64,000 nt of DNA from Escherichia phage vB-Eco-KMB42. The notes under the pieces were generated by a model. It searched no databases and was not told the DNA's origin. It saw only the letters and a program-made list of their open reading frames with translations. Positions within the stretch are counted from its first letter, which is position 1. The number at the start of each line of letters is the position of its first letter. The stretch lies in sequence record OR539221.1; one strand, written 5' to 3'. Of the stretch, positions 2-22,688 are shown one piece after another. The position numbers and the translations under genes are program-made.

Positions 2-1273
2 GTACGTCGTGCTATTCCTAACCTGATTGCTTTCGATATTTGCGGTGTTCAGCCGATGAACAGCCCGACTGGTCAGGTATTCGCACTGCGCGCAGTATAT
101 GGTAAAGACCCAATCGCTTCCGGCGCTAAAGAAGCATTCCACCCAATGTATGGTCCAGATGCAATGTTCTCTGGTCAGGGTGCTGCTAAGAAATTCGCTG
201 CTTTGAAAGCAAGTGATACTCTTGAAGTCGGAACTATTTACACCCACTTCTTCCAGGACACTGGTACTGTGTATCTGCAAGCTACAGCAGCTAAACAAAT
301 TGATTCAGGTGCATCTGACGCAGACAAATTAGATGCTGAAATTAAGAAACAAATGGAAGCTGGTGTACTGGTAGAAATCGCTGAAGGTATGGCTACTTCT
401 ATCGCTGAACTTCAAGAAGGTTTTAACGGTTCTACCGATAACCCGTGGAATGAAATGGGCTTCCGTATCGATAAACAAGTTATCGAAGCTAAATCTCGCC
501 AGCTGAAAGCTGCTTACTCTATTGAATTAGCACAAGACCTCCGCGCTGTTCATGGTATGGATGCTGATGCTGAACTGTCTGGTATTCTGGCTACAGAAAT
601 TATGCTGGAAATCAACCGTGAAGTTGTTGACTGGATTAACTACTCAGCACAGGTTGGTAAATCTGGTATGACCCTGACTCCGGGTTCTAAAGCTGGTGTA
701 TTTGACTTCCAGGACCCAATCGATATTCGTGGTGCTCGCTGGGCAGGTGAATCCTTTAAAGCTCTGTTGTTCCAGATTGATAAAGAAGCAGTTGAAATCG
801 CTCGTCAAACCGGTCGTGGTGAAGGTAACTTCATTATCGCTTCCCGTAACGTAGTTAACGTTCTGGCTTCAGTTGATACCGGCATTTCTTATGCTGCGCA
901 AGGTCTGGCTACCGGCTTTAACACTGATACTACCAAGTCAGTATTTGCTGGTGTTCTGGGTGGTAAATACCGTGTATATATCGACCAGTATGCTAAACAG
1001 GATTATTTCACTGTAGGTTATAAAGGTCCGAACGAAATGGATGCTGGTATTTACTACGCTCCATATGTAGCTCTGACTCCACTGCGTGGTTCTGATCCGA
1101 AGAACTTCCAACCGGTAATGGGGTTCAAAACTCGTTACGGTATCGGTATCAACCCATTTGCAGAATCCGCTGCTCAGGCTCCGGCTTCTCGCATTCAGAG
1201 TGGTATGCCTTCTATCCTGAACAGCCTTGGTAAGAACGCTTACTTCCGCCGTGTATATGTTAAAGGTATCTAA
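2..1273 (+). CDS. 23: major capsid protein gp23, C-terminal ~424 codons (5' end lies outside the window)
   Basis: ORF open to window edge; translation recognised as T4 gp23; followed by hairpin terminator. Confidence 0.93.
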   Translation, partial: VRRAIPNLIAFDICGVQPMNSPTGQVFALRAVYGKDPIASGAKEAFHPMYGPDAMFSGQGAAKKFAALKASDTLEVGTIYTHFFQDTGTVYLQATAAKQIDSGASDADKLDAEIKKQMEAGVLVEIAEGMATSIAELQEGFNGSTDNPWNEMGFRIDKQVIEAKSRQLKAAYSIELAQDLRAVHGMDADAELSGILATEIMLEINREVVDWINYSAQVGKSGMTLTPGSKAGVFDFQDPIDIRGARWAGESFKALLFQIDKEAVEIARQTGRGEGNFIIASRNVVNVLASVDTGISYAAQGLATGFNTDTTKSVFAGVLGGKYRVYIDQYAKQDYFTVGYKGPNEMDAGIYYAPYVALTPLRGSDPKNFQPVMGFKTRYGIGINPFAESAAQAPASRIQSGMPSILNSLGKNAYFRRVYVKGI

Positions 1274-1287
1274 TCTTTGACGATTTA

Positions 1288-1312
1288 AGGGACCTTCGGG
1301 TCCCTTTAGTTG
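1288..1312 (+). terminator. rho-independent terminator after gene 23
   Basis: AGGGACC-TTCG-GGTCCCT hairpin then T-rich tract. Confidence 0.8.
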
Positions 1313-1315
1313 TTT

Positions 1316-1335
1316 TTATGGTATAAATAAATCAT
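1316..1335 (+). promoter_or_regulatory. late promoter (TATAAATA) for gene 24
   Basis: TATAAATA at 1322-1329, ~28 nt upstream of ATG. Confidence 0.7.
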
Positions 1336-1356
1336 ATAAACTGAAAGGAAAGCGCA

Positions 1357-2640
1357 ATGGCTAAAATCAACGAACTTCTGCGCGAATCAACCACAACGAA
1401 TAGCAACTCAATCGGTCGCCCAAATCTCGTTGCTTTGACTCGCGCTACCACTAAATTAATATATTCTGACATTGTAGCAACGCAAAGAACTAATCAACCT
1501 GTTGCTGCTTTTTATGGTATCAAATACCTTAACCCAGACAATGAGTTTACATTTAAAACTGGTGCTACTTACGCTGGCGAAGCTGGATATGTAGACCGAG
1601 AAAAAATCACAGAATTAACAGAAGAGTCTAAATTAACTCTCAATAAAGGCGATTTATTCAAATATAATAATATCGTTTATAAAGTATTAGAAGATACACC
1701 ATTTGCTGATATTGAAGAAAGCGACTTAGAGTTAGCTCTTCAGATTGCAATTGTTCTTTTAAAGGTTCGTCTATTTTCTGACGCAGCGTCAACAAGCAAA
1801 TTTGAAAGCTCTGATAGTGAAATTGCGGATGCTAGATTCCAGATTAATAAATGGCAAACCACAGTTAAATCTCGCAAACTTAAAACTGGTATCACAGTTG
1901 AATTAGCACAAGATTTAGAAGCAAACGGATTCGATGCTCCTAATTTCTTAGAAGATTTGCTTGCAACCGAAATGGCAGATGAAATCAATAAAGATATTCT
2001 GCAGTCTTTGATTACAGTATCAAAACGTTATAAAGTTACAGGAATTACTGATACTGGATTCATTGATTTGAGTTATGCATCTGCACCTGAAGCTGGTCGT
2101 TCATTATACCGAATGGTATGTGAAATGGTTTCGCATATCCAAAAAGAATCAACTTATACAGCAACGTTCTGTGTTGCTTCTGCTCGTGCCGCTGCGATTC
2201 TTGCTGCATCAGGTTGGTTAAAACATAAACCAGAAGATGACAAGTATCTTTCACAAAATGCCTACGGGTTCTTAGCTAATGGTTTACCGCTTTATTGCGA
2301 TACTAACAGCCCATTAGATTATGTAATCGTTGGCGTAGTAGAAAATATCGGTGAAAAAGAAATTGTTGGATCAATTTTCTATGCTCCGTATACAGAAGGT
2401 CTCGACTTGGATGACCCTGAACATGTAGGTGCATTTAAAGTTGTTGTTGATCCAGAAAGCTTGCAACCGTCTATCGGTTTATTAGTTAGATATGCTTTAT
2501 CTGCAAATCCTTACACCGTAGCAAAAGATGAAAAAGAAGCAAGAGTAATTGATGGTGGAGACATGGATAAAATGGCGGGTCGTTCAGATTTGTCTGTTTT
2601 ATTAGGTGTTAAGCTACCAAAAATTATCATTGATGAATAA
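1357..2640 (+). CDS. 24: capsid vertex protein gp24 (427 aa)
   Basis: size and sequence match T4 gp24, paralogous to gp23 C-terminal region; late promoter TATAAATA 1322-1329 and SD upstream. Confidence 0.93.
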   Translation: MAKINELLRESTTTNSNSIGRPNLVALTRATTKLIYSDIVATQRTNQPVAAFYGIKYLNPDNEFTFKTGATYAGEAGYVDREKITELTEESKLTLNKGDLFKYNNIVYKVLEDTPFADIEESDLELALQIAIVLLKVRLFSDAASTSKFESSDSEIADARFQINKWQTTVKSRKLKTGITVELAQDLEANGFDAPNFLEDLLATEMADEINKDILQSLITVSKRYKVTGITDTGFIDLSYASAPEAGRSLYRMVCEMVSHIQKESTYTATFCVASARAAAILAASGWLKHKPEDDKYLSQNAYGFLANGLPLYCDTNSPLDYVIVGVVENIGEKEIVGSIFYAPYTEGLDLDDPEHVGAFKVVVDPESLQPSIGLLVRYALSANPYTVAKDEKEARVIDGGDMDKMAGRSDLSVLLGVKLPKIIIDE

Positions 2641-2643
2641 ATC

Positions 2644-2668
2644 AAAGGGACCGAAAGGTCCCTTTTTA
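2644..2668 (+). terminator. terminator after gene 24 (GAAA tetraloop), also at 3' end of convergent rnlB
   Basis: GGGACC-GAAA-GGTCCC followed by TTTTTATTT. Confidence 0.8.
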
Positions 2669-2669
2669 T

Positions 2670-3674
2670 TTAGCTCACCAACTCAATCCAAGCCGGACGA
2701 AGTACATCTTGTACCATTTTAACTAATTCCTTTTTAACCAAAGAAGGATTATCCGCTTGAGTTAGAGTAATACCTTCACGAGAAGTTTCTTCCAAAATAT
2801 CTTGAACAGTTAGTCCCATCACCTTTCCAAAATCTTTTGGACCAATTTCGCCAATTTTAGAAATAACGTTATTTACTCGGTTCAGTGTAACGTAACAAGC
2901 TAAAATCCCCACCAATTTGTTATCAGCTTCTGACAATTCAACTTTAGCTTTAATAGGCTTATCAGACTTTTTCTTTTCACTAAATTTAGAATTCTTACAT
3001 TTGATGGCTACACGATTTCCATTATGAAGCCAAGAAGGATAACAAGGTTTCAATACATATCCTTCAGCAGTAAATACTTCGCCTTTTGCTTCGGCATTCC
3101 AAACGCATTTATTTGCATCAACTAATCCAGCATGGTCTACTGTAAAATTATAATCTTGGACGACAGAATCTAAATCATTTGGCAATTTAATAAGCTCTTC
3201 AAATTTACCGCGACCTAAAAGTGGAGCCATTTTAAATTTAAATGTATTACAGAATGATTCCATCATATAATCATCGACATAAGTCACATCACCACTTTCT
3301 GTAGTGACAATAATGTCAAATACATAAAAATCTTTATCACCATAATCAACATTCTTCTGAATGCCAGGTCCAGCGAATTCGCCAAAGACTTGATAAGATA
3401 CAACCGCTGAAGTTTCCATAATATCTTGTACTGCTTTAATGGAATCAGCGTAATTCTTTAGAATAATTTCATACCCAAAGAAATCTTCAGCAGGAAGAAT
3501 CGGTCCAGTACGTTTAGCGCAAGTTACTTTATCACGCCCAATAATCAATGAGAAATTTGTGCCGTGAATCTTTTCACGAGCTACCCATTCGCCGCCAGTC
3601 AATCCTAAGCTATAAAGTTTTTCAATAAATTTAGAGTTGTAATGATTTTCAAGACTGCTATACTTTTTAAACAT
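2670..3674 (-). CDS. rnlB: RNA ligase 2 (334 aa)
   Basis: N-terminus [13 protein letters not shown] and KIHGTN nucleotidyltransferase motif; T4 Rnl2 length. Confidence 0.92.
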
Positions 3675-3683
3675 AATTAATCC

Positions 3684-3962
3684 TCAAAATGTAATTTCTA
3701 ACCAATCACCATCACGCTGATCACTATTGACTTTAAAGCTGAATCCTTCTTTTCTCAGCCAATCACCAATTTCTTCAGTAATCAATTTATCACGAGCAGT
3801 ACAATAATAACTAAAATATGTTTTACCTTGTTCAGCTGCTTTATTAGCAAGTTCCGAAAAATCTTTAATAAAACACTCTAGTTTAAACTGTTTGCTTTTA
3901 AGTGCTTTTTCGCGTAATTGATTAGCAAAAGATTCATTTTCATAAAGATCATACTGTTCCAT
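3684..3962 (-). CDS. hypothetical protein (T4 24.2 position)
   Basis: ORF in syntenic position, tightly packed with neighbours. Confidence 0.6.
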   Translation of the reverse strand: MEQYDLYENESFANQLREKALKSKQFKLECFIKDFSELANKAAEQGKTYFSYYCTARDKLITEEIGDWLRKEGFSFKVNSDQRDGDWLEITF

Positions 3963-4164
3963 TTTTCACCTTTTTATTAATATGTCTTTTTCTATAGACA
4001 ACTTTTTCTCGAGTCTCAAATTTATTCTTAGCAGTCATAGCTCGAGCCCATAATACAGCCACTTCTTTTGCCTGTAAGTTCAATTCACGAGCAATTTCAA
4101 TGAATGACTTTCCAGACTCATGAAGAGTAAACACCACAACCTCAGTTCTCATAATCAATCTCAT
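3949..4164 (-). CDS. hypothetical protein (T4 24.3 position)
   Basis: ORF in syntenic position; sigma70-like -10 TATATAAT upstream. Confidence 0.55.
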   Translation of the reverse strand: MRLIMRTEVVVFTLHESGKSFIEIARELNLQAKEVAVLWARAMTAKNKFETREKVVYRKRHINKKVKNGTV

Positions 4165-4230
4165 GTTATCGAGTTGGTGCCATTATATACATCGTTTTCT
4201 GACTATGTTTCGTGTGCTTTCAAAATGAAG

Positions 4231-4250
4231 AAAGGGGCCGAAGCCCCTTA
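4231..4250 (-). terminator. hairpin terminator downstream of hoc
   Basis: minus-strand GGGGC-TTCG-GCCCC then TTTCTTC. Confidence 0.6.
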
Positions 4251-4253
4251 CGA

Positions 4254-5672
4254 TTATGGATAGGTATAGATGATACCAGTTTCTAAAGCAGTTTTATGAA
4301 TGATGTATCCATTGCGCGATTCTTGGACATCAACTTCTGGATAGTCTTTCATCATCTTCTGAAGCGTATAACGATGCAAGTAGTACTTACTATCTGGGTC
4401 GTCAGTTTTCCAATCTTTACCTTCTTCAGTCATTTTTTGGATTTCATCCATAACCCACCAACCGCACCAGATATAAGCTGAAGTACGGTGCGGAAGAGGA
4501 TGAACATAAGGCAATTCACCTTCTGGTTCTGGAGCAACTTTATCAGTCACTTGAACTTGACCTGTTGTTTTAACTGTTTTGCTATCATAATCAGTTGCTG
4601 TAACGACAGCAGTAACTTCAATAGTTTGACTTCCAACAGATGAGGTATCGACAGTATATACGTTAGTTGACCCTTCTACAGGAGAAGAATCTTTCTTCCA
4701 CGAGTAAGTAATTTGTGCTTCTTCTGGAGCATCCGTAACATTAGCCGTAAATGTAGCTGAAGCATCTTGCTGAACGTTAATAGAAGGAGGAGTCAATGTA
4801 ACCTGTGGATTCATTGTCTTCTTATTAACTGTCAATGACACTTCATTAGAAGTAACTTCCTTTTCATTGTAATTTTCTGCTGTTACTTGGGCTACGCATT
4901 TAATTCTTTTTACTCCACTTGTAGTTGGAGTATAGCTAAATGTAGAGTTAGTTTCTCCACCAACTTGTGAATCATCTACATACCACTGATACGTAGCAGA
5001 TGCTCCATCAGGTTGAGAAGCTAAGGCAGCAGTAAATTGAACTGGGGTTCCAATTACTCCAGCTGAAGGACTATCGGGAGTTACTGCCAAAGTAGTTGTC
5101 TGTGTCTTTTTATTAACAGTCAGTGACACTTCATTAGAAGTAACTTCTTTTGCATCATAATCTGTCGCGGTTACTTGAGCTACACACTTAATTGTTTTAA
5201 CTCCACTTGTGTCAGGAGTGTAATTGAATGTAGCGCTAGTCGCTTCGCTCACAGGAGAACTGTCAACGTACCATTGATACGTAGCAGATGCGCCTGATGG
5301 CTGCGAAGCCAAAGCAGCGGTAAATTTAACAGCTGTTCCAATCACTCCAGCCGCAGGACTAGCAGGAGTTACGGCTAAGGTAGTCGTCTGTGTCTTATTT
5401 TTAACTGTGATAGTTGTTGTCGCTTCAGCCGTTTCCGGGCCTCCTTCAGAAAGTGTATTTGTTGCAACTACTTTAATAGTCTTTTGACCAGCAGGACCTT
5501 TTAATACATAATCAAAAGTTGCTTCAGACCCATCTTGTGGAGCATTATCTACACTCCAAGCATAAGTAATAGTTCCACCTCCAGTTTCACCACTGGGTGC
5601 AGCAGTAAACTGCTTGGTTTCATCAATAACTCCTGACGGTGTTTTAGGAGTTATATCAACTGTAAAAGCCAT
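4254..5672 (-). CDS. hoc: Hoc outer capsid decoration protein, 472 aa with tandemly duplicated Ig-like domain
   Basis: N-terminus MAFTVDITPKTP and C-terminal capsid-binding region match T4 Hoc; internal 96-aa repeat. Confidence 0.9.
   Translation of the reverse strand: MAFTVDITPKTPSGVIDETKQFTAAPSGETGGGTITYAWSVDNAPQDGSEATFDYVLKGPAGQKTIKVVATNTLSEGGPETAEATTTITVKNKTQTTTLAVTPASPAAGVIGTAVKFTAALASQPSGASATYQWYVDSSPVSEATSATFNYTPDTSGVKTIKCVAQVTATDYDAKEVTSNEVSLTVNKKTQTTTLAVTPDSPSAGVIGTPVQFTAALASQPDGASATYQWYVDDSQVGGETNSTFSYTPTTSGVKRIKCVAQVTAENYNEKEVTSNEVSLTVNKKTMNPQVTLTPPSINVQQDASATFTANVTDAPEEAQITYSWKKDSSPVEGSTNVYTVDTSSVGSQTIEVTAVVTATDYDSKTVKTTGQVQVTDKVAPEPEGELPYVHPLPHRTSAYIWCGWWVMDEIQKMTEEGKDWKTDDPDSKYYLHRYTLQKMMKDYPEVDVQESRNGYIIHKTALETGIIYTYP
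4821..5396 (-). repeat. tandem 288-bp duplication inside hoc encoding two ~80% identical 96-aa Ig-like domains
   Basis: protein segments KTQTTTLAVTP...EVSLTVNK repeated twice. Confidence 0.85.
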
Positions 5673-5681
5673 AAGTTATCC

Positions 5682-6362
5682 TTATTTTAATGTTACGAAA
5701 GAAGAATTGCGTGTTTCACGAATTAAAACTGATCCGTCGCGATTAATGTAATAAATTAAGCTAAACAGAGTTTGGTGTGCTGACGCGTGTTCAAAACTAG
5801 TTGGATGAGATTTCCAATCAGGAGTTTCAGCGATCCATTGATAAATCCACCAAGGAACCGTACAGAATCCTGGATTTTTCCCCAATAATTGAAGATTCGG
5901 GCTAAAGTTTTCCGGAAGAGTAAATACAGACGGCTTTTCAGATTCAATAATCTCAGCTACAGCTTGTTCAAACTTTTCTTCAACAAAAGGAGTGTCTTCA
6001 ATCAAACCATCAGTATTTTCAGGAATTTTATCCGTTTCTACCACTTCAATTTTAACATCAGATTTAACTGGAGAATCAATCAGAAGTGCTGCTTCTGGAT
6101 TAACTTCTTCATCGTCATATTTTAATCCCTCTGCAGCATCAGCAGCATCAATTAAGTCTTTAATAGATAACCCATCAGTCTCTGGCATAGGTTCACTAGC
6201 GAGCTTCTGGAGGGCTTCTTCAATATCAACAACGATATTATCAAAAGATTTATTCTTTTTGACCTTTATACCAAACTGTTCAGCGTATTCAGCTAATTTA
6301 GCTTTAGCTTCTTTATTATCATCAAGAGCCTTCAGCTCTGCAATATAATCTTTATCTATCAT
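5682..6362 (-). CDS. inh: Inh, inhibitor of prohead protease (226 aa)
   Basis: synteny between hoc and uvsW, T4 Inh size. Confidence 0.8.
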   Translation of the reverse strand: MIDKDYIAELKALDDNKEAKAKLAEYAEQFGIKVKKNKSFDNIVVDIEEALQKLASEPMPETDGLSIKDLIDAADAAEGLKYDDEEVNPEAALLIDSPVKSDVKIEVVETDKIPENTDGLIEDTPFVEEKFEQAVAEIIESEKPSVFTLPENFSPNLQLLGKNPGFCTVPWWIYQWIAETPDWKSHPTSFEHASAHQTLFSLIYYINRDGSVLIRETRNSSFVTLK

Positions 6363-6369
6363 AATATTT

Positions 6370-6390
6370 CCTCAGTATAAATATAGATAT
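6370..6390 (+). promoter_or_regulatory. late promoter (TATAAATA) for uvsW
   Basis: TATAAATA at 6376-6383. Confidence 0.65.
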
Positions 6391-6412
6391 ATTTATTACA
6401 TGGTATTTAGAC

Positions 6413-7924
6413 ATGACTGACATTAAAGTACATTTTTATGATTTTAGTCACGTGAGAATTGATTGTGAAGAAAGTACATTTCATGAACTCCGTGATTTCT
6501 TTAGCTTTGAAGCTGATGGGTATCGTTTTAATCCGAAATACAAATATGGCAACTGGGATGGACGAATCCGTCTTTTAGATTATAATCGTCTTCTTCCATT
6601 CGGCTTAGTCGGGCAAATTAAAAAGTTCTGTGATAACTTTGGCTATAAAGCCTGGATTGACCCACAAATTAACGAAAAAGAAGAATTATCAAGAAAAGAT
6701 TTTGATGAATGGCTTTCTAAATTAGAAATCTATTCAGGAAATAAAAGAATTGAACCACACTGGTATCAAAAAGATGCAGTGTTCGAAGGATTAGTTAATC
6801 GTCGTAGAATTCTTAATCTTCCAACTTCGGCTGGTAAATCTTTAATTCAAGCTTTGCTTGCGCGATATTATTTGGAAAATTATGAAGGTAAAATTCTTAT
6901 CATTGTTCCAACAACTGCTCTGACAACTCAGATGGCTGATGACTTTGTTGATTATCGTTTATTCAGTCACGCAATGATAAAGAAAATTGGTGGCGGAGCA
7001 TCAAAAGATGATAAATATAAAAATGATGCACCAGTCGTTGTTGGTACATGGCAAACTGTAGTAAAACAACCAAAAGAATGGTTCTCACAGTTTGGAATGA
7101 TGATGAATGATGAATGCCATCTTGCTACAGGAAAAAGTATTTCATCTATCATATCAGGTTTAAATAACTGCATGTTCAAATTTGGTCTATCTGGTTCATT
7201 ACGTGATGGCAAAGCCAATATCATGCAGTATGTTGGAATGTTTGGTGAAATATTTAAGCCAGTAACGACTTCTAAATTAATGGAAGATGGGCAAGTAACT
7301 GAGCTAAAAATTAATAGTATTTTTCTTCGCTATCCCGATGAGTTCACTACTAAATTAAAGGGAAAAACTTATCAAGAAGAAATAAAAATTATTACGGGGC
7401 TTAGTAAAAGAAATAAATGGATCGCTAAATTAGCTATTAAGCTTGCGCAAAAAGATGAAAACGCTTTTGTCATGTTTAAACATGTATCGCACGGTAAAGC
7501 TATTTTCGATTTAATTAAAAATGAATACGATAAAGTTTATTACGTATCAGGGGAAGTTGATACCGAAACACGCAATATAATGAAAACCTTAGCTGAAAAT
7601 GGTAAAGGAATAATTATAGTAGCTAGTTATGGTGTATTTTCTACTGGTATTTCAGTTAAAAATCTGCATCACGTTGTTTTAGCGCACGGTGTTAAATCAA
7701 AAATCATTGTATTACAAACAATCGGTCGTGTATTACGTAAGCATGGTTCTAAGACAATAGCAACAGTCTGGGACCTCATAGATGATTGTGGTGTTAAGCC
7801 AAAATCTGCTAATACGAAAAAGAAATATGTTCATTTGAACTATCTTTTAAAACACGGCATTGATCGTATTCAGCGCTACGCAGATGAAAAATTCAATTAC
7901 GTAATGAAAACAGTTAATTTATAA
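6413..7924 (+). CDS. uvsW: UvsW DNA/RNA helicase (503 aa)
   Basis: helicase motifs (Walker A PTSAGKS, DECH box), late promoter TATAAATA 6376-6383. Confidence 0.92.
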   Translation: MTDIKVHFYDFSHVRIDCEESTFHELRDFFSFEADGYRFNPKYKYGNWDGRIRLLDYNRLLPFGLVGQIKKFCDNFGYKAWIDPQINEKEELSRKDFDEWLSKLEIYSGNKRIEPHWYQKDAVFEGLVNRRRILNLPTSAGKSLIQALLARYYLENYEGKILIIVPTTALTTQMADDFVDYRLFSHAMIKKIGGGASKDDKYKNDAPVVVGTWQTVVKQPKEWFSQFGMMMNDECHLATGKSISSIISGLNNCMFKFGLSGSLRDGKANIMQYVGMFGEIFKPVTTSKLMEDGQVTELKINSIFLRYPDEFTTKLKGKTYQEEIKIITGLSKRNKWIAKLAIKLAQKDENAFVMFKHVSHGKAIFDLIKNEYDKVYYVSGEVDTETRNIMKTLAENGKGIIIVASYGVFSTGISVKNLHHVVLAHGVKSKIIVLQTIGRVLRKHGSKTIATVWDLIDDCGVKPKSANTKKKYVHLNYLLKHGIDRIQRYADEKFNYVMKTVNL

Positions 7925-16454: not shown

Positions 16455-16486
16455 ATGGGGACCGAAAGGTCCCCATATTTTTATTT
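16455..16486 (+). terminator. terminator after gene 54
   Basis: GGGGACC-GAAA-GGTCCCC then ATATTTTTATTT. Confidence 0.8.
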
Positions 16487-16771
16487 ACGGAATGAAATAA
16501 AAGCAGCAACTGAAGCAACAGAGGTTTCTTCAATATAAACCTCAATTTTTACCGGAGCTTCTGACTCAAATTTACCTGTTACTACACCTTGGAAAATACT
16601 TTCAGTCTGTTCTGGCTTTGAAAAATTTTCAGAAGGAAAAATTCCAAACTTTTTATCGGTTCCGAAAATTTTAATAAATTCATCATAAACTGCTTCATTG
16701 AAAGCGTTATCAGCGGGAATAACGCCTTCAACGACGAGTTCTTGACCTAAAAAGCGCAAAGAAGATTTCAT
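16481..16771 (-). CDS. hypothetical early protein (96 aa; T4 alt.-3 position)
   Basis: ORF with SD GAGGAA and its own early promoter (16790-16850). Confidence 0.6.
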   Translation of the reverse strand: MKSSLRFLGQELVVEGVIPADNAFNEAVYDEFIKIFGTDKKFGIFPSENFSKPEQTESIFQGVVTGKFESEAPVKIEVYIEETSVASVAAFISFRK

Positions 16772-16789: not shown

Positions 16790-16850
16790 TGTCAGTAAAA
16801 CTACTATAACACAATACGAGGGACTTGTAAACTACATTTTGAACTTTTTA
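16790..16850 (-). promoter_or_regulatory. early sigma70-type promoter (-35 GTTTAC, -10 TATAGT)
   Basis: minus-strand GTTTAC at 16827-16832, 18-bp spacer; nearly identical to promoter at 32140-32200. Confidence 0.6.
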
Positions 16851-18889
16851 GACATTCCGTTGATGTTAACCAAAGAAGCTAAGATTTGAGAAACTTCGTT
16901 TTCCTCTTCTTTTGATTCTTCTACAAGGAATTGATTAAATCCAGCCATTGGACGAACTTCACCAGTTTCCATCAGATGGTCGCCATCATATACTGATTCT
17001 TCTAATTGTTCAGAAGGAGAAACGATTGTACCTTCGATTAGATACTTGTTATAAGCAGTTTCTTTCATCATGTACGTACTTACTTTATTAATCTTCAGTA
17101 AAATTCCACGCGGCAAAATAACTTCAGCTTCGGATGGAAATCCTGATAAATGACCTGGAACGATAACTTTAACTCGTTCAGCTCCTTTAATTACCATACC
17201 TACATTAGTTTCAGCGTCTTCATTCGCATATGTAGAATGACTACCCATATGCATTAAATCTTCAGCATCAACTGAACCTTCTCCTTCACCAGAAAATACT
17301 GTTCCAGCGTCATCTAAAGCCATATAATTTTTACCATATTCACCGAAGATATTTGGCTTGAGTGAAGTAGATACAAAGTTCTTGAAATAGAACATTTTAT
17401 TTTCTATATTATGACGTAAAGTTTTAAAAGTAACTTCTTGGCCACGGTAAAGTGTAGTTCCCGGAGGAAGAACTGAACCTTTAGCAAATGCAGAATCCAA
17501 CGTCTCAATGTGCTTAATAGCACGTTCCATATATTCTTCACGTGTAGAATCAGGTTTACCTAAAAGGAATGAGTTCATTTCAACATATGAATCTGCACAA
17601 TAATCTTCAATTACATCAGATTCAGCCTGAGTTAATCCTTTTGGAGTTACTTCAGTGCTTGCATATTCATATGCCTGAGCAGCAGATTCATCAATTAATT
17701 TATAAATTCCATTCATTACAAATTGAATAATAGCTGTCTTTTCATCTGGTGTAGCTTTAGAACCTTTAACTAAATCATTGATAATTTTCTTAATAACATC
17801 AAAACTATTAGAAATATTAATATCAGCAAGATCACTTAAAATTTTATCAGTTTTATAATCAAAGAATTCTTTATTCTTTAAATATTCTTGAGAACCTTGA
17901 TATGTTATATCGCTCTGCAGCTTGATAGATGGATCGCGTAAACGTGCATGGGCCAATGCAATATGATTTCGGAAGCTTTCGAGTTCATAATCACTAGATT
18001 TAAAACGAGAAGCACTTCTCATACCACCGATAGCTCCTTTGCTAAAGTTTGAACCAACCTGAATAACGCCAGAGTTCATTGGTCCTTCTGCTTTATATAC
18101 CGGAACTTTAGATTCAAACTCTTGATATTTCTTAGCAGCGAAGCTATCACCCTGAAGTGAAGCATCAACAGTAGAATATTGAGCTTGCGCTGCTAATCGA
18201 CGACTAATTTTAGTTTTCTGAATAACAGCTTGATCCGTGCGCTTATCATTTTCTAAAGCAATAGAAGCAGCAACAGCAACAGCTTTAGGAACAGCATTAC
18301 CTGTTTTAACGTCTACATAAACATCACCAACCTTTGATTCAACTTTTGTGAATAACTCGGTTGAAATAGGAGGTACACCTGGAATGTCTTCTAAATTGGC
18401 ATTTTTACGGTAAACCATAATATATGCGTACTTTTTATCATAATCCCAGATTTCCTTTAAAAGAACATATCGACCTGCTCCTTTAGTACGTACTAAACGG
18501 TCAGCAATAACTTGCATTTGACGAGCAGCGCCATTTGTTTTACTTTTTAGTACGCGGAATAAGCATGCATCAATTTTATACTGTTTCATTGTTTGAAGAG
18601 CAGTATCAAAAACAGCATTAATGACGCCAATTGGATTTCCACCCAAGTTTTTAAGCTTAACTAATGATAGTTTCTCATTAACACCTATCATTACGATATG
18701 CATCATTTTGTCGCCTGGCTTAACGTTTTTATTCGTATCACCGCCAGAGGTGTATGTACAAAATCTAAATCCAGGAAGCACGCTTTCTTCACCGGCTTGA
18801 ATAGCAAAAATTTGTGGTATTTTATGCTTAGGATTTAAGTTAACAACCGGCGCCGAAGCGCCGTCAAATAATTCTGTAATAAGTTCCAT
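16832..18889 (-). CDS. Alt-family mono-ADP-ribosyltransferase paralog (685 aa; T4 alt.-2/alt.-1 position)
   Basis: N-terminal MELITELFD region highly similar to adjacent alt; C-terminal R-S-E type ART signature (LYRG...FVSTSL...SEAEVILPRG). Confidence 0.82.
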   Translation of the reverse strand: MELITELFDGASAPVVNLNPKHKIPQIFAIQAGEESVLPGFRFCTYTSGGDTNKNVKPGDKMMHIVMIGVNEKLSLVKLKNLGGNPIGVINAVFDTALQTMKQYKIDACLFRVLKSKTNGAARQMQVIADRLVRTKGAGRYVLLKEIWDYDKKYAYIMVYRKNANLEDIPGVPPISTELFTKVESKVGDVYVDVKTGNAVPKAVAVAASIALENDKRTDQAVIQKTKISRRLAAQAQYSTVDASLQGDSFAAKKYQEFESKVPVYKAEGPMNSGVIQVGSNFSKGAIGGMRSASRFKSSDYELESFRNHIALAHARLRDPSIKLQSDITYQGSQEYLKNKEFFDYKTDKILSDLADINISNSFDVIKKIINDLVKGSKATPDEKTAIIQFVMNGIYKLIDESAAQAYEYASTEVTPKGLTQAESDVIEDYCADSYVEMNSFLLGKPDSTREEYMERAIKHIETLDSAFAKGSVLPPGTTLYRGQEVTFKTLRHNIENKMFYFKNFVSTSLKPNIFGEYGKNYMALDDAGTVFSGEGEGSVDAEDLMHMGSHSTYANEDAETNVGMVIKGAERVKVIVPGHLSGFPSEAEVILPRGILLKINKVSTYMMKETAYNKYLIEGTIVSPSEQLEESVYDGDHLMETGEVRPMAGFNQFLVEESKEEENEVSQILASLVNINGMSKKFKM

Positions 18890-18892
18890 GAT

Positions 18893-20986
18893 TTATCCTT
18901 GAACGAACTTGTAAGGCATGTTTGTAATATCTATGCAAGACGCAATAATTCCAAGAGATGATTCTACTTTCTGTTTAATATTTGATGAAACAAATGATGC
19001 AAAGTCAACTCTGTCTTCTATTTCAATATCACCTGTCATTGCAACCAATTCACCAGTTTCCATTAAATGGTCTCCATCATAGATTACCGATTCGGTGAGC
19101 TCTTCCGTGGTCATAACTTCAGCTTGAATGAGTTTTGTATTATTAGATGTTGTTCCGTCATTATTAGAAGCATCAGTTATTTTATTAACCTTGACCATCA
19201 ATCCGCGTGGTAGAATAACTTCAGCTTCTGTTGCTATTCCGAGACTTCCTGGATATACAACATTAACTTTATGAGCTCCATCAATTGCCCATCCTATTTG
19301 AACTTTAACATATTCAGGATTTTCTTTATACGCTCTTATTTCGTTTGGATTAATAGTTATTCCTTCTTCATTTTTATCAACTGTTAATTCGTTACGAGCT
19401 TCTGGTTCTAAAAGACCAATACCAGCATGTGTGATTCCAAAACGTCCAAAAATGATAGGAGTTAAAGAAGTAGATACAAAATTTCTGAAGTAGAACACTT
19501 TATTTTTAACTAACGCTTCATATATAGGAGCAGTCATACTTTGAGCACGATAAACTGTAATGCCTTCTGGTATACGGTCACCATTTTCAAAAGCTGAATC
19601 TAAGTTATTTATAGCAGATTCAATTTCTTTTTCACTCATTACATCGTATCGTTCTGGATTGTAACGACCTAAAAGAAGATTATTGATGTCAGTATATCCT
19701 GAACCGCAATATTCTCTAATGCCACGCTTTTGTGATGGAGTATATTTAGAACCATCGCGGGCAATAGTAATATCAATCATTGGACCAGCACCAATTCCAG
19801 AAAAACTGTAAATCATTCGTTTGAGGAATTTAGTTTTTGCTGCGTTCCAGGAATTTTTAGTTATTTCTTCCCAGACTTCATCTGGTTGTCCTTTACGATT
19901 TTTATTATGATTAGCAAGCCATTTATCTTTATAATCTTCAAAGAATTGATTTACAGCTGCTGCGTATTTCTCTAAACATTTTATTGAAGTAGTTGGTTCA
20001 TTTTTAATTGCATTAAAAATTACTTCTTTAATTTTTTCTGAAACTTCACCGACTTGACTCATTGGAAAGAATTTATAATCATAGTGAAGTTCATCTGCCG
20101 TTCCTTCAGCAATAATTTTTGCTGCCTTTGTTTTAGAAGCTAATGAATTAATTCCAATTTTCATTTCTTCTGCTTCGGGAATTAAAGGTGCAGTAGCTGG
20201 TTTATTAAAATTAGCTGCTGTAGATTCATACTTCTGGAATAATTCACTTTCAAATCTAGAAGATTCCAATGACTGACTTTGTGCAATTGCTCTACGGGAA
20301 ATTTTAACTTTAACGATTACAGCTTGGTCAGAACGTTTATCATTTTCTTGTGCAATTGATGCTGCAATTGCCTCATTTTTAGTTACTTGGGCTCCAGTAT
20401 CTTTATTGATATAAACATCACCGACTTTCGATTCAACTTTAGTAAAGAGTTCAGTGCTAATTTCTGGAACTCCTGGAATGTCTTCTAGTGATACATTTTT
20501 ACGATGTATAAGAATATATGCATACTTTTTATCGTAATCCCAGAGTTCCTTAAGAAGGACGTATCTGCCACCTGAACGACTACGGATAAGTCTATCAGCA
20601 ATAACTTGAATTTGTCTAGCTTGGCCAGCAGTTTTAGACTTAAGAATACGAAGCATACAGGCATCAATTTTATATTGACGCATTGTTTGCATTGCAACAG
20701 TAAAAACTGAATTGATATAATTAATCGGGCTTGGACCAAGACCTTTTAATTTGGCAATTGAACCTTTAGCAGTTAATGTAAAAGGAACAATATGCATCAT
20801 TTTATCGCCCATCTTTAAATCGCGATTAGTATCACCTCCAGATGTATAGGTACATAAACGAAAGCCTGGTTGTTCAATTGCATCATCAACATGAACTGAA
20901 AAAATTTGTGGTATTTTCTTCTTTGGATTTAAGTTTGTAATCGGAAGAGTAGTATCTTCGTCAAATAATTCTGTAATAAGTTCCAT
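18893..20986 (-). CDS. alt: Alt ADP-ribosyltransferase, capsid-packaged (697 aa)
   Basis: MELITELFDEDTTLPITNL N-terminus; ART motifs VYRAQ...FVSTSL...TEAEVILPRG; late promoter TATAAATA (minus) 21010-21017. Confidence 0.85.
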   Translation of the reverse strand: MELITELFDEDTTLPITNLNPKKKIPQIFSVHVDDAIEQPGFRLCTYTSGGDTNRDLKMGDKMMHIVPFTLTAKGSIAKLKGLGPSPINYINSVFTVAMQTMRQYKIDACMLRILKSKTAGQARQIQVIADRLIRSRSGGRYVLLKELWDYDKKYAYILIHRKNVSLEDIPGVPEISTELFTKVESKVGDVYINKDTGAQVTKNEAIAASIAQENDKRSDQAVIVKVKISRRAIAQSQSLESSRFESELFQKYESTAANFNKPATAPLIPEAEEMKIGINSLASKTKAAKIIAEGTADELHYDYKFFPMSQVGEVSEKIKEVIFNAIKNEPTTSIKCLEKYAAAVNQFFEDYKDKWLANHNKNRKGQPDEVWEEITKNSWNAAKTKFLKRMIYSFSGIGAGPMIDITIARDGSKYTPSQKRGIREYCGSGYTDINNLLLGRYNPERYDVMSEKEIESAINNLDSAFENGDRIPEGITVYRAQSMTAPIYEALVKNKVFYFRNFVSTSLTPIIFGRFGITHAGIGLLEPEARNELTVDKNEEGITINPNEIRAYKENPEYVKVQIGWAIDGAHKVNVVYPGSLGIATEAEVILPRGLMVKVNKITDASNNDGTTSNNTKLIQAEVMTTEELTESVIYDGDHLMETGELVAMTGDIEIEDRVDFASFVSSNIKQKVESSLGIIASCIDITNMPYKFVQG

Positions 20987-21004
20987 GTTATCCTCTCTAG
21001 TGTT

Positions 21005-21022
21005 TATTCTATTTATAAAATT
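21005..21022 (-). promoter_or_regulatory. late promoter (minus) for alt
   Basis: plus-strand TATTTATA at 21010-21017, 24 nt upstream of alt ATG. Confidence 0.6.
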
Positions 21023-21040
21023 AAAGGCCCGAAGGCCTTT
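21023..21040 (-). terminator. hairpin after alt.1-position ORF, immediately upstream of alt late promoter
   Basis: AAAGGCC-CGAA-GGCCTTT. Confidence 0.5.
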
Positions 21041-21042
21041 AA

Positions 21043-21228
21043 TTAATAGAGAGCTAAAAGAGTACGATATACTTCAAACTTTGGACCTTTTTCATATGGA
21101 TCAAATCTTTCCGTGAATTCATCATATGCTAGTTTATCTGGGAATTCAAGAATAACCTGCGATACCGCAGTGGAAACATCTCCACCTTCTTTTTGAGCCA
21201 CGACAATTGTTTCTAAGTAAGCTTTCAT
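21043..21228 (-). CDS. hypothetical protein (T4 alt.1 position, 61 aa)
   Basis: ORF, stop overlaps ligase start region. Confidence 0.55.
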   Translation of the reverse strand: MKAYLETIVVAQKEGGDVSTAVSQVILEFPDKLAYDEFTERFDPYEKGPKFEVYRTLLALY

Positions 21229-22688
21229 AAACCAGTTACCTCATGAAAATCGCCAAATACATCTTCGAACGTATTAGCTTTAGTTTTATCTTCACGTAAA
21301 CGAATTGCAATTGGAAGAAATAGCTTAACGTAATCAGTACGTCCATCTAATTTTACCCAGCCGTTGCATTCGCACTCTAGAATTTTTCCAATATAATAAT
21401 TTTGGTTTTCCATAATGCGAGTACGATCAAGTTCATGCGATTTTATACCGGCTTTATCTTTTAAGCCTGAACCAGCATTTACTTTAATTTTTCCACACTC
21501 TGATTCAAGAATGAAACCACCTGCTTTAGTAGGGTCTTTACGGTGAGGATAAATTCCTACAATTTTTAAATCAACATCAATTACTTCTTTAAATTTATAA
21601 AGATTTTTTGAACGAGCATTTTCCCATAATCCATCGATATTTTTAAGAATAATACCTTCAAGACCTTGGTCAATATACTTTTTATAAATTACCTTAGCTT
21701 CATCTAGGTTATTTACTATCTGGTTTTCAATTAAAATTACTTTATCATAGCCTGATGTCATTTGTTCTAGTTTAGAAAAACGTACATCATATTTTAAACG
21801 AAATGCTGGAAGACCATATATTTCTACTAATGGAACATAGTCCCAGACCTGAAACTTCATGCATTGTGCTTCTTTTTCAGAAATGGTTCCCTTTAAAGAT
21901 TTATTAGCGATTCCATTAGAAGTAGTACGTGATTCAGCTACTTCGGCGAATTCTTTAGCTTTACTAATTTCAGGATAAGCATCAAAAAGAAAATCTAGGC
22001 CTTCTGGCTCCTTTTTAACCTGCTCATGGTATACCAATTCGCCATCAATTAACACACCTTCTGGATGAATCTGGCGAGCTTCTGCAGTCATTTTGATTAA
22101 CTCTTCCTTGAGAAGATCTAATCCTAGATATTCATTACCAGCTCGTGATAAAAGACGAACATCATCTAATTCATCACCTCTGACTTCAGCAAAGCACCGA
22201 GCTCCATCAGCTTTTAACTGGGCAAAAGCTGGAAATTTAATATTCTTATTAATGCCTTTTTCATCATAAGAACTTGCCAGCATTTGAGGTTGTTCAGGAA
22301 TTAAACCTGGCCAAACTTTATTTGCAATAGATACAGAAGCACCACATTCAAGGTCTCGCATCATTACTCGACGTAATACTTCAACATCATCTTTTTTACC
22401 ATCGGTGATATATCCGATTAATTCCTCAATTGCCGCATTTCCAGTCAATTTCCGAGTAGCTAACGTGAATTCAATGAAGTCAAGCATATCGGTAAGAGTC
22501 AACATTCCAAAACTCTGGGTAGTAATACCCGGTTTAGGCCATTTCTTGATATAATACTGTAACCCACGAGAATAAGTCAGACGATATACTCGTTTAAGCA
22601 ATTCATTATCTTTATTCTTTTCAAGAATTGCTTGCTTCTGCTTAGTTGAACCAATAGATGCTATTTCGTTCAGAATTTTAAGAATCAT
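21225..22688 (-). CDS. 30: ATP-dependent DNA ligase gp30 (487 aa)
   Basis: N-terminus MILKILNEIASIGSTKQKQAILEK matches T4 DNA ligase; length 487. Confidence 0.95.
   Translation of the reverse strand: MILKILNEIASIGSTKQKQAILEKNKDNELLKRVYRLTYSRGLQYYIKKWPKPGITTQSFGMLTLTDMLDFIEFTLATRKLTGNAAIEELIGYITDGKKDDVEVLRRVMMRDLECGASVSIANKVWPGLIPEQPQMLASSYDEKGINKNIKFPAFAQLKADGARCFAEVRGDELDDVRLLSRAGNEYLGLDLLKEELIKMTAEARQIHPEGVLIDGELVYHEQVKKEPEGLDFLFDAYPEISKAKEFAEVAESRTTSNGIANKSLKGTISEKEAQCMKFQVWDYVPLVEIYGLPAFRLKYDVRFSKLEQMTSGYDKVILIENQIVNNLDEAKVIYKKYIDQGLEGIILKNIDGLWENARSKNLYKFKEVIDVDLKIVGIYPHRKDPTKAGGFILESECGKIKVNAGSGLKDKAGIKSHELDRTRIMENQNYYIGKILECECNGWVKLDGRTDYVKLFLPIAIRLREDKTKANTFEDVFGDFHEVTGL

Follow-up and report, generated by a model that had tools for sequence, protein, structure and literature searches.

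Introduction

Alt of bacteriophage T4, an ADP-ribosyltransferase (ART) delivered in the phage head, is the closest described counterpart of the genes considered here, and what is known of injected phage ADP-ribosyltransferases comes nearly all from T4. About 40 copies of T4 Alt are present per head, where the protein is part of the prohead core (PMC5694885; PMC9026906). It is cut by gp21 after ITE-6 and LTE-619, losing propeptides of 6 and 63 residues (PMC5694885), and the annotation of X15811 also gives the T4 Alt cleavage site. Here we describe two adjacent alt genes of Escherichia phage vB-Eco-KMB42 (record OR539221.1), analysed within a window that is the whole 64,000-nucleotide stretch of DNA, and compare them with T4, which turns out to be the exception at this locus.

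Duplications of alt, including alt.-1/alt.-2 of T4 and a full-length paralogue in phage 44RR, were noted in 2006 (PMC1524935). The tandem pair is the common state in Tequatrovirus, already known and annotated, and the window holds one more instance of it. Our literature searches for a second Alt, for gpAlt and for proteomic analysis of virions from phages with two copies turned up no published study of the downstream Alt and no proteomics report on either protein of such a phage; alt goes unmentioned in Petrov 2010. Our analysis covers gene structure, paralogy, catalytic residues, predicted fold, purifying selection, a deletion in T4 and distribution among phages. It makes it probable that the pair specifies two co-transcribed, head-packaged and injected arginine ADP-ribosyltransferases from a single late operon. 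What we add to earlier annotation is an explicit statement of the truncation in T4, a case that the second gene is functional and probably packaged, and a picture of recombination and cassette exchange at the locus.

Results

Two alt genes behind one late promoter

The window carries a Tequatrovirus alt locus, with a 4.9-kb stretch that is 99.0% identical to vB_EcoM-BECP11 and is matched by 542 phage records. Coordinates are given in window numbering, and both alt genes lie on the minus strand. The open reading frame (ORF) list returns the two adjacent Alt-family genes, of 685 and 697 codons at 16832-20986, exactly as a first-pass annotation made from the sequence alone had reported them. The elements that define the proposed operon are as follows.

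21023-21040, minus strand: hairpin AAAGGCC-TTCG-GGCCTTT followed by a T-run, directly 3' of the alt.1 stop codon (read from the sequence)
21010-21017, minus strand: T4-type late promoter TATAAATA, about 24 nucleotides 5' of the upstream alt ATG (from the sequence)
18893-20986, minus strand: upstream alt, 697 amino acids, stop codon 18893-18895 (ORF list)
18890-18900, minus strand: gene junction, with ribosome-binding site AAGGA 18896-18900, TAA 18893-18895, spacer ATC 18890-18892 and ATG 18887-18889
16832-18889, minus strand: downstream alt paralogue, 685 amino acids, stop codon 16832-16834 (ORF list)

The upstream gene has the ribosome-binding site GAGG at 20992-20995, and that of the downstream gene sits within the final codons of its neighbor, the downstream ATG following the upstream stop by 3 nucleotides. 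This junction is identical in T2 and T6 and is kept even in L004, a diverged metagenomic phage. A pattern scan of the minus strand detected no terminator-like site between the two genes, and a 3-nucleotide junction free of a terminator makes co-transcription of both probable. The late promoter occupies the same place in T4, T2, T6 and L004; as anticipated, it stands 5' of the upstream gene only. The hairpin is likewise found upstream of alt in T4, T2, T6 and L004. It was not flagged by the pattern scan for terminators, but it looks like a terminator that shields the alt operon from early and middle transcription upstream, and a terminator 5' of alt is kept in five of six T4-like genomes (PMC1524935).

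A second perfect TATAAATA octamer lies within the upstream coding region (19606-19613, minus strand), 717 nucleotides ahead of the downstream ATG. T2 and T6, with the same allele, share it, the diverged alleles of T4 and L004 lack it, and about nine octamers of this kind would occur by chance in the window. We therefore rejected the idea that it acts as a second late promoter driving the downstream gene; its restriction to one allele suggests that it is probably incidental.

A shared N-terminal domain, unrelated middle regions and two ART domains

The upstream and downstream proteins align end to end (BLASTP E = 5e-166, 41% identity), with similarity distributed unevenly. Both begin MELITELFD, and the resemblance that had been noticed over some 230 N-terminal residues amounts to 68% identity over residues 1-238 (55-82% in 40-residue windows). 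Identity falls to about 15-25% by 40-residue window over residues roughly 255-410, where the middle regions proper share 12% and are unrelated in sequence. It recovers to 25-52% by window in the catalytic part (38% at the level of the domain) and is 22-45% in the C-terminal tail. The resulting domain plan is listed here for each protein.

20273-20986, minus strand: upstream N-terminal alpha/beta domain, residues 1-238, including the MELITE propeptide with ITE|6 (alignment, AlphaFold2)
19757-20224, minus strand: upstream hypervariable helical middle region, residues about 255-410 (alignment, AlphaFold2)
19106-19750, minus strand: upstream ADP-ribosyltransferase domain, residues about 413-627 (Pfam PF03496)
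19547-19549, 19472-19474 and 19220-19228, minus strand: upstream catalytic residues R480, S505 and E587 with E589, respectively
18896-19090, minus strand: upstream predicted C-terminal propeptide, residues 633-697, after LTE630-632 (homology to T4 LTE|619)
18176-18889, minus strand: downstream N-terminal domain, residues 1-238, with MELITE|6 (alignment)
17681-18115, minus strand: downstream helical middle region, residues about 259-403 (alignment, AlphaFold2)
17027-17644, minus strand: downstream ADP-ribosyltransferase domain, residues about 416-621, with R482, S507-T-S509, E587 and E589
16835-16996, minus strand: downstream predicted C-terminal propeptide, residues 632-685, after LEE629-631 and including YDGDHLMETGE

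Both proteins exceed the 23.4-bit cut-off of Pfam PF03496 (ADPrib_exo_Tox), the upstream one at 129.9 bits and the downstream one at 72.3 bits, and both match PHROG 802, 'Alt-like RNA polymerase ADP-ribosyltransferase'. Their C-terminal halves have diverged, each with the predicted Arg-Ser-Glu signature in place: VYRA (R480), STS505-507 and EAE587-589 in the upstream protein, and LYRG (R482), STS507-509 and EAE587-589 in the downstream one. In an alignment with T4 Alt, ModA and ModB, the comparison that had been proposed as a check, the catalytic columns are kept and no residue is lost, the catalytic Arg, the first Ser of S-T-S and both Glu of E-x-E being invariant. The same residues are invariant across 37 diverse Alt homologues. 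Since Arg, Ser-Thr-Ser and Glu-x-Glu are the signature of arginine-specific enzymes, we infer arginine specificity for both proteins, and the conservation is evidence for an apparently functional enzyme encoded by the downstream gene. Mutation of the second Glu of the motif in ModA (E165A) inactivates the enzyme, as does E577A in T4 Alt (PMC11404850). In the NC_000866 translation the T4 Alt ExE residues are E574 and E576, not E577, and ModA E165 agrees with the literature; the published name E577A looks like a one-residue numbering offset.

Sequence searches of solved structures returned nothing for the downstream protein and weak CDTa and Iota matches only for the upstream one, so that a comparison of folds was needed. 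AlphaFold2 models of the two proteins have a mean predicted local distance difference test score (pLDDT) of 78.8 and 75.8 and share one plan: an alpha/beta region over residues 1 to about 240, a helical region from about 250 to 470, an ART core from about 478 to 625 and a low-confidence tail. With the upstream model Foldseek retrieved Vis, CDTa, Iota Ia and C3 at E values from 2e-6 to 5e-4, as expected of the ART fold of the Alt/VIP2 clade. One residue in the loop before ExE separates the lineages, an aromatic (F584) being present in the downstream lineage and absent from the upstream/T4 lineage, which is consistent with a difference in substrate. The ARTT loop of C3 and Iota-type enzymes touches the substrate. 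NCBIfam has no model for either Alt, nor for alt.-3 or alt.1.

The N-terminal domain belongs to the family PF26846 (Tevenvirinae_ADPRT), an assignment that comes precomputed for P0001, a cluster representative of 98% identity, and for P0118. Against the T4 Alt N-domain the upstream copy is about 100% and the downstream copy 68% identical. The family numbers 69 representatives among 1.84 billion, with the domain N-terminal in every case, and this alpha/beta domain of about 230 residues is restricted to Alt proteins of T4-like phages. Comparison of its fold gave weak GNAT-like matches only, and when the N-domains and middle regions were scanned against Pfam on their own, no informative match came up at E <= 10; a GNAT-like identity thus lacks sequence support in Pfam scans and we have not built on it.

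To see whether the Alt N-domain may carry non-ART payloads, we looked at ten relatives of atypical length, and seven of these carry an ART match. The three with no Pfam match are P0205, at 221 amino acids probably a fragment, and P0202 and P0203, at 485 and 541 amino acids, whose N-domain match is weak (E 3.5e-8 and 7.9e-7, respectively) and which have no Pfam ART match. These two may join an Alt-type N-domain to another payload or may be merely diverged sequences.

Conservation of the processing sites

The first-pass annotation linked the shared N-terminal region to capsid packaging. For T4 Alt, what is documented is the two propeptides that gp21 removes; no published statement was found of a packaging role for all 230 residues, and such a role for the whole region would be an extrapolation. 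Both window proteins have the ITE4-6 site within MELITE. The column homologous to T4 LTE|619 reads LTE630-632 in the upstream protein and LEE629-631 in the downstream one, each followed by a conserved YDGDHLMETGE. At the level of the motif, the Glu at both cleavage sites (E6, and E632 upstream or E631 downstream) is invariant in alignments of 37 sequences. Confidence drops below a pLDDT of 50 over residues 631-675 of the upstream model and mostly after residue 630 of the downstream one. By analogy with T4 Alt, the downstream protein is probably packaged in the head. Co-transcription, packaging and processing of both proteins are what we infer from the arrangement of the genes and these sites.

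T4 retains a remnant of the second gene

T4 (NC_000866) has an alt gene of 682 amino acids followed by alt.-1 (61 amino acids), alt.-2 (67 amino acids) and alt.-3, and its record labels alt.-1 and alt.-2 (NP_049810, NP_049809) 'an old duplication of the first part of gene alt'. It is to the downstream protein, not the upstream one, that the two short proteins belong: they are nearly identical to its residues 1-55 and 62-117, and PHROGs 23015 and 15247 match it (E 2e-40 and 3e-38). By blastn and alignment of the junction, T4 is collinear with the window except for 1,690 missing bp.

16852-18541, no strand assigned: segment missing in T4, corresponding to downstream Alt codons about 117-679 (blastn, junction alignment)

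A 9-bp direct repeat, ACTTTTTAG, stands at both edges of the deletion (16843-16851 and 18542-18550). Collinearity apart from this one segment, with the repeat at both edges, indicates that the second alt was removed by a microhomology deletion, and the stump that was left is split by a frame disruption into alt.-1 and alt.-2. Read in this way, the aligned sequences identify alt.-1 and alt.-2 as the leftover of a full-length paralogue and not as a partial duplication. Whether T4 has an intact second copy or only fragments had been left as a question; the alignment of alt.-1/alt.-2 and the 1,690-bp gap answer it in favor of fragments only, and the objection that T4 might carry both genes intact does not apply. 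T4 is a derived, truncated state at the alt locus.

The upstream protein is 72% identical to T4 Alt (NP_049811) overall, in a mosaic: about 100% over residues 1-238, 12-33% over residues of about 260-410, 55-78% in the catalytic part and about 90% in the tail. By position the upstream gene is the orthologue of T4 alt, but its middle region and catalytic part are of another allele. The downstream protein is about 42% identical to T4 Alt overall and 37% in the catalytic domain. Phage OE5505 has the T4-type alt allele together with an intact second copy.

Distribution among phages

A tblastn search found the downstream protein at full length and at least 95% identity in 396 phage records, with almost none at 60-95%, and the 4.9-kb two-gene locus is at least 80% present in one piece in 364 records. 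T2 and T6 each have the intact pair of 697 and 685 amino acids. Among the 40 best-matching records DNA identity over the locus is 96.6-99%. The pair is annotated alt_1/alt_2 in T2, T6, RB51/RB68, wV7, UFV-AREG1, BECP11 and other Tequatrovirus phages. Many records use 'alt_1/alt_2' or give 'Alt-like RNA polymerase ADP-ribosyltransferase' twice, and elsewhere the second gene is a 'hypothetical protein'. Acinetobacter phage Acj9 has one alt copy and the Dhakavirus PSD2002 has three in tandem.

Selection, alleles and recombination

By Nei-Gojobori estimates, the ratio of nonsynonymous to synonymous substitution (dN/dS) for the downstream gene is 0.048 against T6, at a synonymous divergence (dS) of 0.21, and 0.126 against L004 (dS 1.5), where the downstream-type gene keeps its frame and catalytic residues at 75% identity. 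The catalytic domain by itself gives 0.05-0.2. The downstream gene is under strong purifying selection, and the low dN/dS means that it is not a decaying duplicate. Between the upstream and downstream N-domains dS is 1.7, which is saturated, and the duplication is old. The saturation, together with the separate maintenance of both types in L004, argues against recent homogenization and led us to reject recent gene conversion as the cause of the N-domain similarity.

Canonical alt is strongly polymorphic, the middle region being 12-33% identical between the window and T4 and the flanks 90-100%. Synonymous divergence of the upstream gene from T4 alt follows the same mosaic: dS is low in the N-domain (0.15) and the tail (0.19) and rises to 1.3 across the middle and catalytic parts. 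The middle region of the window type is found in 103 records at at least 95% identity, in 214 at 90-95% and in 38 at 60-80%, and the T4-type middle region in 174 records at at least 90%. There are thus at least three allele classes of the upstream middle region in Tequatrovirus, whereas the downstream gene is nearly monomorphic, a contrast that suggests different selective regimes.

The tandem alt paralogues of PSD2002 are of 631, 693 and 707 amino acids (1012-7124 in our extract L009). Its second paralogue is 95% identical to the upstream Alt of the window in the catalytic part at the protein level, 82-93% at the nucleotide level and 57-83% at third positions; identity drops to 47% across the N-domains, where third positions are close to saturated. 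The discrepancy argues that the catalytic cassette moved between genera and that the N-domain follows the phage lineage, and the sequences indicate that this exchange would have been recent. In position and in sequence (58% identity in the catalytic part, 46% in the middle) the third paralogue corresponds to the downstream gene.

Recombination has also acted between the tandem copies. In protein clusters P0003, P0004, P0005 and P0007 an upstream-type N-terminus passes into downstream-type sequence, the crossovers falling near residues 50, 100, 185 and 215, and such a chimera is the sole alt gene of L007 (a 65-kb contig) and of two phages with complete genomes, ECML-134 and Yersinia phage PST.

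2501-4561 of ECML-134 (extract L010): single chimeric alt
2501-4561 of PST (extract L011): single chimeric alt
6001-8055 of L007: single chimeric alt

Since ECML-134 and PST are isolated phages with complete genomes, we rejected an assembly artefact as the origin of the chimeric genes. At least six distinct crossover points across clusters and genomes point to repeated unequal recombination between tandem copies. Such recombination has reduced the pair to one gene more than once, and in every case it was the downstream catalytic module that survived.

Flanking genes

The alt genes lie between gene 30/alt.1 and alt.-3/gene 54, the synteny of a T4 Alt-type locus.

21225-22688, minus strand: DNA ligase gene 30, flanking the alt locus (ORF list)
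21043-21228, minus strand: alt.1, 61 amino acids, with a 4-nucleotide overlap with the ligase stop codon (ORF list)
16803-16831, minus strand: T4-early-type promoter GTTTACA, 17-nucleotide spacer, TG-TATAGT, between the downstream alt stop codon and alt.-3 (pattern match only)
16481-16771, minus strand: alt.-3, 96 amino acids, the next gene 3' of the pair, marking the end of the locus (ORF list, T4 synteny)
16455-16476, no strand assigned: bidirectional terminator hairpin between alt.-3 and gene 54 (pattern scan)

The alt.1 ORF of related contigs has a precomputed match to Pfam PF24647 ('Phage_blade') and ends directly before the hairpin and late promoter. At the other end alt.-3 converges on the baseplate gene 54. 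Because it has a predicted early-type promoter of its own and is bounded by the bidirectional terminator, alt.-3 is probably expressed early, without relying on late transcription of the alt genes. T4 mutants that escape the CmdTAC defence system carry an Alt.-3 extended at its C-terminus, which blocks degradation of CmdA (PMC11618068).

Discussion

We propose a model in which the single T4-type late promoter would give a bicistronic mRNA for both alt genes. Each product follows a four-part plan: a 6-residue propeptide with the N-domain, a helical middle specific to the copy, an ART of the C3/Iota/Vis type and a tail of about 55-65 residues after LxE that is predicted to be disordered. As with T4 Alt, both proteins would enter the prohead core and be trimmed by gp21 at both ends, and the trimmed proteins would remain in the head and enter the host with the DNA. 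Once inside, they could modify arginines of host proteins by mono-ADP-ribosylation in the first seconds of the infection. The upstream protein is the orthologue of T4 Alt, and the downstream one the intact form of the paralogue that T4 lost by the 1.69-kb deletion.

The first-pass annotation suggested that the two enzymes might have different host targets, which is plausible on the sequence evidence. The deep divergence of the copies (38% identity in the catalytic domains, 12% in the middle regions), purifying selection on both, their contrasting polymorphism and the difference in the ExE loop favor distinct targets, and we would expect target sets that overlap but are not identical. Several observations weigh against our model of two packaged enzymes with targets of their own. 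We found no proteomic or biochemical data on the downstream protein of any phage in the literature, and no late promoter lies directly before its gene. The argument from the ARTT loop is carried over from structural work on C3 and Iota. Phages with one module are viable, whether of the upstream type (T4) or the downstream type (ECML-134, PST), and alt is non-essential in T4 (PMC9026906), so that the functions of the two copies may overlap and need not address separate essential targets. T4 Alt is itself promiscuous, modifying Arg265 of RNA polymerase alpha, translation and metabolic proteins, and MazF (PMC2988021; PMC10286901). Modification of Arg265 is known for T4 Alt alone (PMC2988021).

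These last points lead to the alternative in which both enzymes modify the same substrates, chiefly RNA polymerase alpha at Arg265, and the second copy serves as added dose or as a spare. The architecture, catalytic signature and predicted processing are alike in both proteins, natural phages thrive with either module alone, and T4 Alt by itself has many targets (PMC2988021). Simple redundancy, however, does not predict purifying selection on both copies in about 400 genomes, nor does it sit well with a duplication old enough for dS to be saturated, with catalytic domains that are 38% identical and middle regions that are unrelated, or with a downstream gene that is nearly monomorphic beside several upstream allele classes. 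We regard redundancy as unlikely, although it is the most serious competitor of distinct targets.

It could also be that the downstream Alt is made late but is not packaged, acting in the producing cell, or that it is a part of the prohead core in which enzymatic activity is irrelevant. That the gene has no late promoter of its own, and that we found no virion proteomics in the literature, would fit such a role, and Alt has been described as important to the core whether or not it is catalytically active (PMC11404850). Nevertheless, the downstream protein keeps the Alt N-domain, an identical MELITE propeptide and an LxE site with its invariant Glu, which is hard to reconcile with a protein that stays behind. 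Invariant catalytic residues and a catalytic-domain dN/dS of 0.05-0.2 speak against an idle enzyme, and the sole alt of ECML-134 and PST, in which an upstream N-domain carries the downstream enzyme, is sensible only as a packaged payload. We consider this reading improbable. That the downstream gene is a decaying duplicate, a pseudogene in the making, is very improbable indeed: the T4 counterpart is reduced to two short ORFs and the pair has collapsed to one gene in some phages, but dN/dS is 0.048-0.126 at substantial dS, about 400 records, and L004 too, have an unbroken frame and all catalytic residues, and the collapsed pairs keep the downstream catalytic module.

Returning to two packaged and injected enzymes, it is tempting to speculate further that the T-even alt locus is a small polymorphic-effector system. 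The lineage-specific N-domain and the two propeptides that the protease removes would act as the ticket into the head, ART cassettes would pass from one phage genus to another and be reshuffled when tandem copies recombine, and the nearly invariant downstream enzyme would act on a host target of its own other than RNA polymerase alpha, such as a factor in defence or translation. This is a tentative extension, to which we give somewhat less than an even chance. Should a second Alt indeed be packaged and act on targets of its own, more of the host would be modified in the first seconds of a T-even infection than the T4 model shows. This would be relevant to host takeover and to counter-defence because T4 Alt already inactivates MazF. 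The natural phages with one copy, two copies or a chimera make the question easy to address. For annotation, the second gene should be named an Alt paralogue, not a 'hypothetical protein', and alt.-1/alt.-2 of T4 a deletion remnant.

Among known systems, T4 Alt is closest. The upstream gene has the locus, late promoter, hairpin, R/STS/ExE residues and ITE|6 and LTE motifs of T4 alt, and the downstream protein the entire domain plan and both cleavage motifs. They differ from T4 Alt in the upstream middle (12-33% identity) and catalytic part (55-78%), and in the downstream protein as a whole (about 42%). The downstream gene shares near-identical sequence and position with T4 alt.-1/alt.-2, but 1,690 bp are deleted and the frame is disrupted in T4, whereas the window gene is intact. 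From the annotated alt_1/alt_2 pairs of T2, T6 and others, which have the same gene sizes, the window does not differ substantively. ModA and ModB of T4 share the R-S-ExE catalytic core; unlike the Alt proteins, they are of about 200 amino acids, with 16-17% identity, are early and not packaged, and have no N-domain, helical region or propeptides.

The bacterial enzymes Vis, C3bot, Iota Ia, CDTa, VIP2, SpvB and Certhrax are 14-26% identical to the Alts in sequence. The toxins use secretion or a pore-forming partner, whereas Alt proteins are delivered in the phage head. The Alt N-domain is not a second ART-like domain, unlike that of Iota Ia or VIP2, and the pair does not have the tandem ART-like adaptor and pore-forming partner of the binary toxins (Iota Ia, CDTa, VIP2, C2I). 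The likeness to polymorphic effector loci, such as the T-even internal proteins with a capsid-targeting sequence and the bacterial polymorphic toxins, lies in a lineage-bound N-domain with a mobile catalytic part, in tandem arrays of one to three alt copies and in recombination between copies that makes new combinations. In contrast to those loci, every alt payload seen is an ART of the same family and there are no immunity genes, so that the relationship is one of analogy and not of membership.

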